Shown here one piece after another: positions 12,001-15,000 of a stretch of 15,515 nucleotides of DNA. The DNA is taken from the UHGV virus genome UHGV-0099607; one strand, written 5' to 3'. The position numbers are program-made. This DNA comes from a virus. How positions within the stretch are numbered: the first letter of the stretch is position 1; each line of letters begins with the position of its first letter.

Positions 12001-15000
12001 CATCCTTGAATAGCCGACACCTTTGCATCTTCCGCATTCTTTCTCAACAACTCTCCCCCACTGCTCTGTTTTTGCTATATCAACCGCACGGCCTGTACCG
12101 TGACAATCTCTGCATCTTGCGCCAGGCGTCGCGGCACTACGGCAATAATCCGCATAAGCGAATGTTGCGAGCACTTGCAGTACCTTTGCCTTAGTATTTC
12201 CTTCGAGCTTTGCCACACCACGGTATTTCCCCGATACCTTGTGTGCAAATTGCATCAGATAGTTGATAGCCTTTTGTTTGTCGTTCTGGCTGAGTTCGTG
12301 CTTACCACAGAATGCAGCCATTCCGAATCCGGCTTGTGATTGCGCCATCCCCATAGCAGCCATCACATCAGTAGCTCCCTGTGTGCATCCAACTGCCTTA
12401 GCAAGTGTTGTTTGAGAGATATTCAGTGACTCTCGATATTTTCGTAGGTTGCTCATATGCCCTCCATAGTAACCATGAAACAATAATACGATATGTACTT
12501 TTAGAATGCAAACAAAAAATACATCTTGTGCATGGATGGTTTTAGTACAGAGCGTAATAATAAGGGTATGAAAATGAAATGGTATGAACTGGCTAGATCC
12601 AGAATGAAAGAGCTCGGCATAACTCAAGAGAAGTTAGCTGAAGAGCTTGGTATGACGCAGGGTGGAATTGGTCACTGGTTGCGCGGATCTCGTCATCCAT
12701 CTCTTGACGAGATTGGTGTGGTGTTTAAATACCTTGGTATTGATAACGTCTCATTCAACCACGACGGTACATTTTCACCTGTTGGCGAATACTCATCTGC
12801 CCCCGTTAAAAAACAATATGAGTACCCTGTTTTTTCTCATGTTCAGGCCGGGATGTTCTCGCCTGAGCTTAGAACCTTTACCAAAGGTGATGCGGAGAGA
12901 TGGGTCAGCACAACCAAAAAAGCCAGTGATTGTGCGTTTTGGCTTGAAGTTGAAGGTAATTCCATGACCGCGCCAACAGGATCCAAGCCAAGCTTTCCTG
13001 ACGGGATGTTAATTCTCGTTGACCCTGAGCAGGCTGTTGAGCCAGGTGATTTCTGCATAGCCAGACTTGGTGGTGACGAGTTTACCTTCAAGAAACTGAT
13101 CAGGGATAGCGGTCAGGTGTTCCTACAGCCACTAAACCCGCAATATCCAATGATTCCATGCAATGATAGCTGTTCCGTAGTAGGGAAAGTTATCGCCAGC
13201 CAGTGGCCTGAAGAGACATTTAGTTAACAGCCTCACCACTCTAAAACACACAACAATAACCCGACCTTAGCGTCGGGTTTTCTTTTTCCAAAATATAAAC
13301 CCATTAAATACAAAGCGTTATAAAAAACTAATTATATTTAGAACATTTTGTATTGACTCGATAAAGTACAAATCGTACTATTTAGCCATCAGCAGGACGC
13401 ACTAACCACCATGAAGGTGAGGCTCTTAAAAATTAAGCCCTGAAGAAGGGCAGCATTCAAAGCAGAAAGCTTTGGGGTGTGGTGAAGCTCAACGGCGAGC
13501 TAGGGAATAGTTTTGCGGTGAAGATTCTAGACAACTAACCGCAGGATGCGCGTAACCCAATCGGCAGCGCACCGATGGAAGCTGGTTCGACTCCAGCCAC
13601 CACACCACCAAAGCTAACTGACAGGAGATGAACATGAAACATAACGAACACTTTATGGCTTGGTTGAAGTCAATGCGTGATGAAGCAAAGCGTCCTGAAA
13701 CAACAATGACGCGAATCGTGGAAATCTTCTCCTGCATCAGCAAGTACGCAACCTGCCAATAACTGTCGGCCCCGCTGAGGGGCCATTTATCTGAGGATGA
13801 TATATGGACTCTCAAACACGCCGCCGCGAACGTCGCGCAGAGAAACAGGCTCAATGGAAAGCAGCAAATCCCCTGTTGGTTGGGGTAAGCGCAAAACCAG
13901 TTAACCGCCCTATTCTCTCGCTGAATCGCAAACCGAAATCACGAGTAGAAAGCGCACTGAATCCGATAGACCTTACAGTGCTGGCTGAATACCACAAACA
14001 GATTGAAAGCAACCTGCAACGTATTGAGCGCAAGAATCAGCGCACATGGTACAGCAAGCCTGGCGAACGCGGCATAACATGCAGTGGACGCCAGAAAATT
14101 AAGGGAAAATCGATTCCTCTTACCTAGTTACTTAGATATTGGCCTTGGCTTTATCTCAATATTATATGGATCATAGCTGGCAACTAATTCAGTCCAGTAA
14201 ATATCCTCAATAGGGAATAATATATGCTTCCCGTTCCATCGGGAAAAAGTTTTGTTCAACACACCAAGCTCAATCAACTCACTAATGTATGGGAATTGTT
14301 TTGATGTAACCACATACTTCCTGCCTTCATTAAGGGCTGCGCACAAAACCATAGATTGCTCTTCTGTAAGGTTTTGAATTACTGATCGCACTTTATCGTT
14401 TTGCATCTTAATGCGTTTTCTTAGCTTAAATCGCTTATATCTGGCGCTGGCAATAGCTGATAATCGATGCACATTAATTGCTAGCGAAAATGCAAGAGCA
14501 AAGACGAAAACATGCCACACATGAGGAATACCGATTCTCTCATTAACATATTCAGGCCAGTTATCTGGGCTTAAAAGCAGAAGTCCAACCCAGATAACGA
14601 TCATATACATGGTTCTCTCCAGAGGTTCATTACTGAACACTCGTCCGAGAATAACGAGTGGATCCATTTCTATACTCATCAAACTGTAGGGGTTGTAATA
14701 GTTTATCCGATTTCTCGCTGTAGGGGTACACGAGAACCACCGAGCCTGATGTGGTTAAAAGACAGGCACAATCTTTACTACCGCAATCCACTATTTAAGG
14801 TGATATATGGAAGAAGAATTTGAAGAGTTCGAAGAGCATCCGCAGGATGTAATGGAACAGTACCAGGACTATCCGTATGACTACGACTATTGATAAGAAT
14901 CAATGGTGTGGACAATTCAAGCGATGCAATGGATGCAAGCTGCAATCGGAATGCATGGTTAAGCCTGAAGAAATGTTTCCTGTAATGGAAGATGGGAAAT

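Follow-up and report, generated by a model that had tools for sequence, protein, structure and literature searches.

The virus genome UHGV-0099607, of which a stretch of 15,515 nucleotides was analysed (in the following called the window), carries a gene for a cI-type repressor. A preliminary description had proposed that this protein joins a DNA-binding domain foreign to lambda to a lambda-like C-terminal domain. This raises the question whether the two parts were brought together by recombination or drifted apart from lambda at different rates, and how the gene is started and controlled. The gene is an intact prophage repressor. Its domain mosaic is confirmed, but is common and has been described before. 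Taken together, we consider it very probable that the gene encodes a two-module maintenance repressor, which arose by recombination in the linker, acts on operators of its own type, cleaves itself and is translated from a leaderless PRM mRNA.

Domain structure of the repressor

Translation of the window gives an intact reading frame of 219 amino acids (Table 1). Pfam assigns residues 11-58 to HTH_3 (E 8e-11, above the curated cut-off) and residues 87-209 to Peptidase_S24 (PF00717, E 9e-29). In the pairwise alignment with lambda cI the divergence is confined to the N-terminal part and not spread evenly along the protein. From the residues YEYPVF onward the tail (residues 84-219) is identical to residues 102-237 of lambda cI (Met numbering) at 133 of 136 positions of a global alignment, with a BLASTP E-value of 3e-103. 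In the head (residues 1-83) only 26 residues of the helix-turn-helix can be aligned, which correspond to helices 2-3 of lambda and of which 12 are identical (E 1e-7). Sequence matches of the tail in the PDB (3bdn, 8gmu, 2ho0) cover the protein from residue 83/84 on. The head had been described as a different helix-turn-helix of about 85 residues; the different helix-turn-helix is found, the length has to be corrected to 83.

At the DNA level the homology to lambda sets in abruptly with the first base of the Tyr84 codon (12817) and extends to 13221. Over this range the window is 93.6% identical to lambda 37637-37233 without any gap, and the differences are nearly all synonymous. To the left of 12817 no lambda homology is detectable in the DNA of the repressor head. 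The break corresponds to Glu100/Tyr101 of lambda (mature numbering) and is located in the linker, C-terminal to the DNA-binding domain 1-92 and 11 residues N-terminal of the scissile bond, which is also where the crystallised fragments capable of self-cleavage, cI101-229 (2ho0) and 8gmu, have their N-terminal edge. The earlier placing of the recombination point in the interdomain linker agrees with a lambda-like block which begins at Tyr101 of lambda, past the 1-92 domain.

Table 1. Positions of the repressor gene, its control elements and the adjoining cro' sequence in the window.
Feature	Position	Strand	Basis or remark
cI-type prophage repressor gene, 219 aa plus stop	12568..13227	+	ORF, translation, Pfam, DNA identity to phage cI
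Non-lambda N-terminal DNA-binding domain and start of linker, residues 1-83, VT2-Sa/Nil2/L type	12568..12816	+	
Lambda-type cleavage-site region and S24 catalytic/oligomerisation domain, residues 84-219	12817..13227	+	Lambda identity, PDB matches
Ala94-Gly95 codons, predicted self-cleavage site (lambda Ala111-Gly112)	12847..12852	+	Alignment
Ser132 codon, predicted nucleophile (lambda Ser149)	12961..12963	+	
Lys175 codon, predicted general base (lambda Lys192)	13090..13092	+	
Putative PRM -10, AATAAT	12556..12561	+	Overlaps OR3; spacing as in lambda PRM; equivalent position in AP005153
Putative weak PRM -35, TGGATG, 3/6 match, 17-nt spacer	12533..12538	+	Adjoins OR2; equivalent in AP005153
Putative OR1, ATACgatatGTAC	12486..12498	.	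Overlaps PR -10; coincides with AP005153 operator
Putative OR2, ATACatcttGTGC	12519..12531	.	Centre 43 bp 5' of ATG
Putative OR3, GTACagagcGTAA	12545..12557	.	Site search, AP005153
Putative PR, TTTGCA, 18 nt, TATTAT; drives cro'	12483..12512	-	
Intrinsic terminator after cI, lambda tImm-like	13258..13279	+	
Non-lambda OL/PL region	13308..13381	+	OL3 13308-20, OL2 13341-53, OL1 13366-78, PL 13353-81
First 28 codons of cro (cro'), in-frame fusion to lambda-type Q gene (11842-12372)	12373..12456	-	Start 12456

All determinants of autocleavage which had been claimed for the protein are intact at positions equivalent to lambda. Ala94-Gly95 lies within the motif HVQAGMF, which is the same around Ala111-Gly112 of lambda, and the aligned dyad of Ser132 and Lys175, the Ala-Gly site in the linker and the Peptidase_S24 domain together assign the protein to the S24 family. 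Because the tail is 98% identical to the lambda fragment, which is the self-cleaving unit in 2ho0 and is found in complex with RecA in 8gmu, we infer an autocleavage stimulated by RecA*. Such a cut at Ala94-Gly95 would part the head from the tail and lead to prophage induction.

The repressor would accordingly be built as the maintenance repressor of a lambdoid prophage from two modules with separate evolutionary histories. Module 1 (residues 1-83) is a helix-turn-helix of the lambda-repressor fold, which belongs to the VT2-Sakai/Nil2 immunity type, is distantly related to C2 of phages L/ST64T and gp46 of epsilon34, and is devoid of the N-terminal arm of lambda. Module 2 (residues 84-219) would provide dimerisation and cooperative binding.

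Relatives of the two modules and state of the prophage

The head is 96% identical to that of the Stx-phage CI proteins and 50-55% identical to the heads of g341c, ST64T and the Erwinia, Vibrio and Klebsiella phages. Head and tail of these proteins are not equally related to the window, with identities of 55% and 79% for g341c, 53% and 47% for the Klebsiella phage, 53% and 42% for the Erwinia phage, and 50% and 45% for the Vibrio phages. Lambda, SfI and HK106 combine an unrelated head with a tail which is 98.5% identical to that of the window, and the tail of S137, also on an unrelated head, is 82% identical. S137 and mEpX1 have one head type, yet in the tail they agree with the window to 82% and 61%, respectively. 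At least three other head types carry a lambda-type tail.

A similar picture is obtained from 77 IMG/VR loci, which differ from the window at 0-4 of the 249 nt coding for the head. In their tail DNA the differences to the window amount to 0-63 of 411 nt; the tail of one locus (L037) is only 7 nt apart from lambda, as compared to 29 nt for the window. Since the relatives of the head bear discordant tails and the tail varies while the head is constant, recombination rather than uneven divergence explains the mosaic pattern, and the domain mosaic of the preliminary description is borne out by the sharp identity break in protein and DNA as well as by the discordant relatives of the two domains. 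Uneven divergence without recombination was ruled out on the discordant domain identities and on the variable tail beside a constant head. It would start from an ancestral lambda-like repressor, whose head diverged fast under selection for new immunity while the tail was conserved. The common fold of the two heads, the equivalents of Gln33 and Gln44 among the 12 of 26 residues in helices 2-3 that match lambda, and the diversifying selection expected on immunity determinants would suit such a history. However, we regard it as highly improbable, as an identity of 93.6% falls to an undetectable level at a single nucleotide position, the closest head relatives outside E. coli bear tails of 42-47% identity while lambda-type tails sit on unrelated heads, and the tail DNA varies independently of near-identical head DNA. 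In the preferred history, the junction would have arisen by recombination between phages having a conserved stretch in common, and is probably old and common to the whole immunity group. The domain may have been transferred in either direction.

The prophage itself is heavily deleted. Its cro gene is fused to Q, and cII, O, P and the nin genes are missing; after cI no rex genes are found. The homology to cro of vB_EcoP-720R6 ends at 12372 and the homology to Q at 12373, and Pfam finds Antiterm together with a partial HTH_3 in the fusion protein. A search of genome contigs with the exact 34 nt of the cro-Q junction gave no match, among 5,426 complete E. coli genomes there is none that extends across it, and an exact-protein look-up revealed only four contigs of the same structure (from an ENA metagenome assembly and Logan runs). 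These deletions could be taken to mean that the repressor gene is a non-functional, decaying relic of a defective prophage. This is very improbable, however, because the reading frame is intact, the predicted operators, promoters and terminator are intact as well, the gene DNA is 99.3-99.8% identical to that of isolated phages, and the protein is the commonest variant, identical in 46 of the 77 IMG/VR loci.

Upstream of N the window contains a 175-bp insert, which is lacking in 720R6, Dewey, 683R2, Louie and phi458. A 44-aa ORF before N could not be assigned to a PHROG family, and tblastn gave no match to it in phages.

Start codon, promoters and operators

The TAATAA hexamer, which had been noted about 7 nt before the start, is present at 12555-12560, 7 nt 5' of ATG 12568. 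The register shifted by one nucleotide, AATAAT, is the better -10 element, as it matches TATAAT at five of six positions including A2 and T6 and leaves 6 nt to the ATG. The same spacing is seen in lambda PRM (TAGATT, 6 nt, ATG), and in AP005153 the PRM -10 was annotated by Sato at the corresponding place. Because of its too weak -35 element PRM is missed by a generic sigma-70 scan of the window, and it was assigned from the spacing and the comparison with relatives. The ATG at 12568 is kept as ATG in all nine relatives. A -10 element (at least 5/6 match, with A2 and T6) lies 6-7 nt 5' of it in eight of the nine, which correspond to six of seven independent lineages. In composition-matched shuffles such a placement occurs 2-3% of the time (P ~2e-9, provided that the lineages are independent of each other). 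As this conserved element shares sequence with the right half of OR3 (GTAAT), its conservation may partly reflect constraint on the operator and not on the promoter.

The mRNA of lambda cI from PRM is leaderless (PMC10491246), and the same had been proposed for the window. No correctly spaced Shine-Dalgarno sequence for ATG 12568 is found upstream of it, and literature searches revealed no published mapping of transcript starts for the VT2-Sa/Nil2 immunity type. The invariant ATG, the -10 in eight of nine relatives and the lack of a usable Shine-Dalgarno sequence give strong comparative support to the inferred leaderless cI mRNA as at lambda PRM. In the lysogen, transcription would most likely proceed from the weak PRM, whose -10 overlaps OR3, and the transcript would begin at or beside the A of ATG 12568.

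Two other starts are in use in database records. In the annotation of vB_EcoP-720R6 translation begins at the second ATG, 12574, which would yield 217 amino acids from a leadered mRNA with AAGGG (12562-66) as Shine-Dalgarno sequence, ending 7 nt 5' of this ATG. Of the six relatives with ATG at codon 3, five have an AAGG or AGGA abutting the first ATG, as compared to none of the three others, a difference which by independent lineages (3/4 vs 0/3) is not significant. We consider this start unlikely, though worth keeping in mind: codon 3 is not ATG in three of nine relatives (CAG in Klebsiella, ACA in ST64T and mEp013) while the first ATG is invariant, and a -10 element 6-7 nt before the first ATG leaves a leader of at most 6 nt before 12574, which excludes the Shine-Dalgarno motif. 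Leaderless and leadered modes are compatible, as initiation on long transcripts from PRE or read-through might use the second ATG. It is a rather doubtful proposal that both modes operate, with a leaderless AUG 12568 giving 219 amino acids from PRM in the lysogen and a leadered AUG 12574 giving 217 from PRE or read-through mRNA with the abutting AAGG(G) as Shine-Dalgarno sequence; if so, the output of repressor would depend on the promoter that made the mRNA. Hardly any credence is given to a product of 231 amino acids from ATG 12532. In the window the reading frame is open from 12526 on, and this start is used in the annotation of the Stx1-converting phage AP005153 and in automatic gene calls (gene finders, L016, L017). 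However, in eight of the 77 near-identical loci the stretch from 12532 to 12568 is interrupted by an in-frame TAG, 6 codons upstream of the ATG, by which this start was excluded. Moreover, the extension is not conserved, with stop codons in the Vibrio and Klebsiella relatives as well as in mEp013 and g341c, and the start would precede the PRM annotated in the very record of AP005153. The practical gain of preferring 12568 over the 231-aa and 217-aa starts is one of annotation.

Of the predicted ATAC-N5-GTAY sites three are located in the 111-bp spacer between cI and cro' and three upstream of nutL, an arrangement of divergent cro and multipartite operators. The putative OR and OL sites coincide with operators annotated in AP005153, and of four exact TAC-N5-GTA occurrences in the whole 15.5 kb, three lie within OR or OL. 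Because ATACNNNNNGTAT, with 2 mismatches, shows no enrichment window-wide (63 found vs 62 expected), the operators are assigned only by their clustering in OR and OL and by the published annotation. Module 1 most likely binds these sites, three each in OR and OL, which would shut off PR and PL (TTGACT, 17 nt, TACTAT), and the repressor presumably activates PRM. OR1 and OR2 are 33 bp apart from centre to centre vs 24 bp in lambda, so that a lambda-like pairwise cooperativity at OR is an assumption. Around the terminator, 13250-13285 matches lambda 35834-35799 to 89%, and no lambda homology is found in the DNA at 13286-13386.

Comparison with other immunity regions

The mosaic represents a common, published immunity type and in itself is nothing new. 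The repressor illustrates clearly how new immunity types come about in lambdoid phages: OL, repressor head, OR and cro, the parts which determine specificity, move jointly as co-adapted patches, and the module for SOS sensing, self-cleavage and cooperativity between them is a shared cassette, which also offers homology for recombination.

From lambda cI, and likewise from that of the lambda-immunity phages SfI and HK106, the window differs in the head, which is 18 residues shorter, has no N-terminal arm and is unrelated beyond the 12 of 26 identities in the helix-turn-helix. The operators are of the type ATAC-N5-GTAY instead of the lambda 17-mers, and rexA and rexB are lacking. In common are the divergent cI and cro, the tripartite OR and OL, the equal distance of the PRM -10 to the ATG, and, with 98% identity, residues 84-219, which comprise the cleavage site, the Ser/Lys dyad and the surfaces for dimers and tetramers. 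Because of this identity of the tails, the repressor could conceivably form mixed oligomers with lambda cI in double lysogens.

The repressors of the Salmonella phages epsilon34 (gp46) and g341c (C1) as well as C2 of L/ST64T belong to the same head family (~54%), with similar operator half-sites, the same first ATG and the same -10 spacing. The tail of g341c/epsilon34 is 79% identical to that of the window and those of the other sampled members of the family (Klebsiella, Erwinia and Vibrio phages) 42-47%. The repressors of epsilon34/g341c and L/ST64T probably differ from the window in immunity specificity. For epsilon34 a mosaic was described in 2008, with a tail ~80% identical to lambda, a head ~50% identical to L, VT2-Sa and Nil2, and WTACRAWWTGTAT as proposed operator (PMC2629481). 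The mosaic of VT2-Sa had already been reported, according to a citation of Fattah 2000.

Closest in DNA are the Escherichia phages vB_EcoP-720R6, Dewey, vB_EcoP-683R2 and Louie, with 99.3-99.8% identity over 1 kb including cI, OR, terminator and OL, and phi458 with 98.8% over 822 nt of the cI region. The repressor of 720R6 is that of the window save for its annotated start. All five are complete phages with an intact cro, unlike the window.

The CI proteins of Stx phages (VT2-Sakai/VT2-Sa, Nil2, AP005153, Stx2 II, 2851, the PA series and CP-933H) have the same architecture with an identical junction, AAAAAACAA|TATGAGTAC, the same operator half-sites and the same layout of PRM and OR. They are 96.4% identical in the head and 97.8% in the tail, and their cI DNA is ~92% identical overall, with 12 differences in the 249 nt of the head and 36 in the 411 nt of the tail. 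None of the three substitutions in the head (D47S, E48D, V61I) is located in the core helices of the Pfam HTH_3 domain. By a rule of thumb, at least 90% identity of the DNA-binding domain indicates the same specificity (PMC2629481). Over residues 1-83 the identity amounts to 95.2% with VT2-Sakai and to 96.4% with AP005153, Stx2 II and the PA phages, and the same specificity as in the VT2-Sa/Nil2 group is thus expected by that rule. The half-sites of the window and the Stx1 phage correspond, with ATAC..GTAC in OR1 and ATAC..GTGC in OR2 of both and an identical OR3. In contrast to the window, where cro is fused to Q, the Stx phages carry a complete cro-cII-O-P region.

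The repressor and its break against lambda cI

The intact ORF 12568-13227 (+ strand) encodes a protein of 219 aa with an HTH_3 domain (residues 11-58) and a Peptidase_S24 domain (residues 87-209), both over the curated Pfam cut-offs; the protein is assigned to phrog_4, transcriptional repressor (PHROGs). The neighbouring genes and signals are arranged as in lambda, so that the lambda leftward strand is the counterpart of the window + strand and the ORF occupies the position of cI. The sequence contains a divergent cI/cro' pair with three candidate operators per side. A terminator follows cI, and there are no rex genes.

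The preliminary description had claimed a different helix-turn-helix joined to a C-terminal part that reads as lambda cI, and the alignments confirm this. The tail (residues 84-219) corresponds to lambda residues 102-237, counted from Met, with 133 of 136 residues identical (global alignment; BLASTP, E 3e-103). Within the head (residues 1-83) only 26 residues from helices 2-3 could be aligned by BLASTP, 12 of them identical. The N-terminus is 18 residues shorter than that of lambda cI, hence the lambda N-terminal arm is missing. On the DNA level the Tyr84 codon, with its first base at 12817, marks the exact start of homology to lambda, which continues without gaps to 13221 (93.6% identity), while none was detectable upstream of 12817 in the comparison of the cI region with lambda. 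At the junction AAAAAACAA precedes TATGAGTAC in the window, whereas AGAAGTGAG precedes TATGAGTAC in lambda. Alignment with lambda cI thus gives a sharp identity break and not an evenly spread divergence. The last 411 nt differ from lambda at 29 positions, but no more than three of these alter an amino acid, which indicates that the tail segment is under purifying selection and is no recent copy of lambda itself.

The DNA-binding domain of lambda cI comprises residues 1-92, followed by the linker and cleavage-site region (93-131). The shared block begins at lambda Tyr101 (mature numbering), 11 residues ahead of the Ala111-Gly112 bond and therefore after the first and within the second of these regions, in agreement with the recombination point in the interdomain linker proposed before. 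The break also matches the N-terminal edge of the solved fragments cI101-229 (2ho0, 2hnf) and of the 136-residue fragment in 8gmu, with both of which the window protein aligns from its residue 83 or 84 onwards; the exchanged unit is therefore the entire self-cleaving and oligomerising module. The autocleavage determinants are indeed retained, with Ala94-Gly95, Ser132 and Lys175 in place of lambda Ala111-Gly112, Ser149 and Lys192. The repressor is a two-module protein with an intact cleavage site and an intact Ser/Lys dyad. Judged from the 98% identity to the characterised lambda tail and from knowledge of the family, the tail would serve dimerisation and cooperative binding. On the same grounds the repressor is expected to repress PR and PL and to autoregulate PRM, and RecA*-stimulated self-cleavage at Ala94-Gly95 would lead to derepression.

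Recombination versus uneven divergence

As an alternative to recombination, a single ancestral repressor could have diverged unevenly along its length. This is contradicted by varied tails on related heads, by lambda-type tails on unrelated heads, and by tail DNA that varies at near-constant head DNA. Related heads were found in g341c/epsilon34 (head 55%, tail 79% identity to the window protein), Klebsiella ST11-OXA48phi15.1 (53% and 47%), Erwinia Midgardsormr38 (53% and 42%) and Vibrio phages (50% and 45%). Conversely, lambda, SfI and HK106 have unrelated heads and tails 98.5% identical to that of the window. Unrelated heads with lambda-type tails are also present in P13374 (64% tail identity) and in S137 and mEpX1, which have one common head type, yet tails of 82% versus 61% identity. 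In 77 IMG/VR loci the head DNA differs from the window at 0-4 of 249 nt and the tail DNA at 0-63 of 411 nt. The head-tail discordance together with this variation shows that lambdoid phages exchange the tail without regard to the head it is joined to, and the comparisons point to recombination, rather than uneven divergence, as the origin of the mosaic.

The tail of the window differs from lambda at 29 nt, those of the IMG/VR loci L037, L075 and L097 at 7, 12 and 55 nt. The head DNA of these three loci is near-identical to that of the window, which makes them candidate recent recombinants for mapping of crossovers within the tail.

Lambda-like patches of the region are N and sieB, nutL, the tImm-like terminator and the cI tail; unlike lambda are OL/PL (13286-13386) and the block of cI head, OR and cro (12373-12816). 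Judged by sequence, the specificity determinants are the only parts of the region unlike lambda.

Start codon, promoters and operators

The annotated starts are in conflict (231 aa in AP005153, 217 aa in 720R6, 231 aa in automatic gene calls). ATG 12568 is aligned to an ATG in all nine relatives compared, which are from Escherichia, Salmonella, Erwinia, Vibrio and Klebsiella phages, while only six of them have ATG as codon 3. The 231-aa start is contradicted by eight near-identical IMG/VR loci, in which a TAG stands in frame six codons before 12568, and by stops just 5' of the start in several relatives. The comparison settles the question, with ATG 12568 as the predicted start.

A leaderless mRNA had also been proposed. 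In eight of the nine relatives a -10 hexamer with at least five of six matches to TATAAT, including A2 and T6, is separated from the ATG by 6-7 nt; the hexamer is AATAAT in the window and TAGATT at lambda PRM, each with a 6-nt gap. Such an arrangement is found at 0.66% of all window ATGs and in 2-3% of composition-matched shuffles. Its presence in six of seven lineages corresponds to P ~2e-9 provided that these are independent, the caveats being shared descent and overlap with the OR3 half-site. ATG 12568 has no correctly spaced Shine-Dalgarno sequence, as AAGGG ends 1 nt before it. Leaderless translation requires an ATG start, which fits the ATG found throughout the relatives. The PRM-derived cI mRNA of lambda is leaderless (PMC10491246), and the same is probably true for the cI mRNA from PRM in the window. 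A dual-start reading is based on AAGGG being well placed for the second ATG, 12574, 7 nt away, which could serve as start on leadered transcripts.

Putative operators were called with ATAC-N5-GTAT, allowing at most two mismatches, and three sites were obtained on each side. This relaxed pattern is not enriched window-wide (63 found versus 62 expected); the candidate operators were assigned by the clustering of sites, the operator annotation of the AP005153 authors and the half-sites conserved in relatives. Exact TAC-N5-GTA occurs four times in the 15.5-kb window, three times in OR or OL. The centre-to-centre distances are 33 bp (OR1-OR2), 26 bp (OR2-OR3), 25 bp (OL1-OL2) and 33 bp (OL2-OL3) in contrast to 20-24 bp in lambda, and are mirror-asymmetric between OR and OL. 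The centre of putative OR2 lies 43 bp upstream of the ATG, that of lambda OR2 42 bp upstream of the PRM start (computed from lambda coordinates). The acidic positive-control residues in helix 2 of lambda cI are Glu34 and Asp38. Glu21 and Glu25 of the window protein align with them and would fit activation of PRM by OR2-bound repressor.

Features of the element in window coordinates
Feature	Position	Remarks
gtrA, gtrB, gtrC-like gene	50-2582	
Tail-fibre and baseplate-like ORFs	2704-6252	
Large terminase	6446-8179	abuts tail-fibre/baseplate ORFs; only a 145-aa ORF between
Small terminase, HNH gene, Rz, endolysin, holin	9946-11169	
tRNA-Thr, tRNA-Asn	11412-11567	downstream of Q
cro-like ORF	start 12456	- strand, opposite cI; 111 bp from repressor ORF
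PR-like promoter TTTGCA-18-TATTAT	12512-12483	- strand
Putative OR1	12486-98	overlaps -10 of PR-like promoter
Putative OR2	12519-31	
Putative OR3	12545-57	overlaps proposed PRM -10
Intrinsic terminator	13258-79	downstream of cI
Putative OL3	13308-20	
Putative OL2	13341-53	
PL-like promoter TTGACT-17-TACTAT	13353-81	downstream of cI terminator
Putative OL1	13366-78	between PL hexamers
Lambda-type nutL	13387-13481	lambda 35583-35489, 96.8% identity
Gene N and sieB	13804-14664	99.2% identity to lambda

The defective prophage and its known relatives

The prophage is defective. Owing to the deletion of cII, O, P and the nin region, the first gene read from PR after this point is Q-like, followed by tRNA, lysis and packaging genes, and any control of PR by the repressor would in this element bear directly on the Q-like protein and the lysis/packaging genes. 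The sequence is homologous to 720R6 cro as far as 12372 and to lambda-type Q as far as 12373. An in-frame ORF (11842-12456, - strand, 204 aa) joins Cro residues 1-28 at this junction to the Q antiterminator, of which about the first 30 residues are missing. The junction was found in none of 5,426 complete E. coli genomes and in no GTDB representative genome, but in four metagenome or Logan contigs (L016, L017).

An insert of ~175 bp (13629-13803) separates the start codon of N from its lambda-like leader, which contains a Shine-Dalgarno sequence. This Shine-Dalgarno sequence is taken over by a 44-aa ORF of the insert (13628-13762), behind which come a GC-rich hairpin (13769-85) and another Shine-Dalgarno sequence for N. 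The insert is absent from lambda and 720R6 and present in 8-10 of the 5,426 E. coli genomes and in contig L016; for the 44-aa ORF neither a PHROG family nor a tblastn match in the phage collection was found. The rest of the element (1-11170) resembles a serotype-converting lambdoid prophage. No head, portal or tail-tube genes were seen between the terminase and baseplate genes of the window.

Over 1 kb (12400-13400) the window is 99.3-99.8% identical to vB_EcoP-720R6, Dewey, vB_EcoP-683R2 and Louie, 93.2% to phage 2B8 (cI annotated after CP-933H), and 92% to Nil2, the Stx1-converting phage AP005153, Stx2 II, 2851 and the PA series. Of the 77 IMG/VR loci examined, 46 encode precisely this 219-aa protein. 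The gene is also present in VT2-Sakai, with the tail DNA of AP005153 and a head differing from it by 2 nt. In its deposited sequence (AP000363) an in-frame TAG replaces Gln31 inside the helix-turn-helix (GMT*GG), where AP005153 has CAG, and its cI is therefore annotated as an N-terminally truncated 170-aa product.

By-products of use are the corrected start codon and evidence, from comparison across the repressor family, in favour of a leaderless PRM transcript. The repressor itself is a case of textbook lambdoid mosaicism, and according to the citation in PMC10742460 the mosaic was already published, for VT2-Sa, by Fattah et al. The tails of window type, Stx type and lambda are about equidistant in pairs (29, 36 and 29 differences per 411 nt), and the identical junction common to window and Stx type indicates that the mosaic is older than their split. 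For the epsilon34 repressor a tail ~80% identical to lambda and a head ~50% identical to those of L, VT2-Sa and Nil2 were reported, and WTACRAWWTGTAT was proposed as operator (PMC2629481). Among E. coli phages and Stx phages the immunity type is common, and its description dates back more than 20 years.
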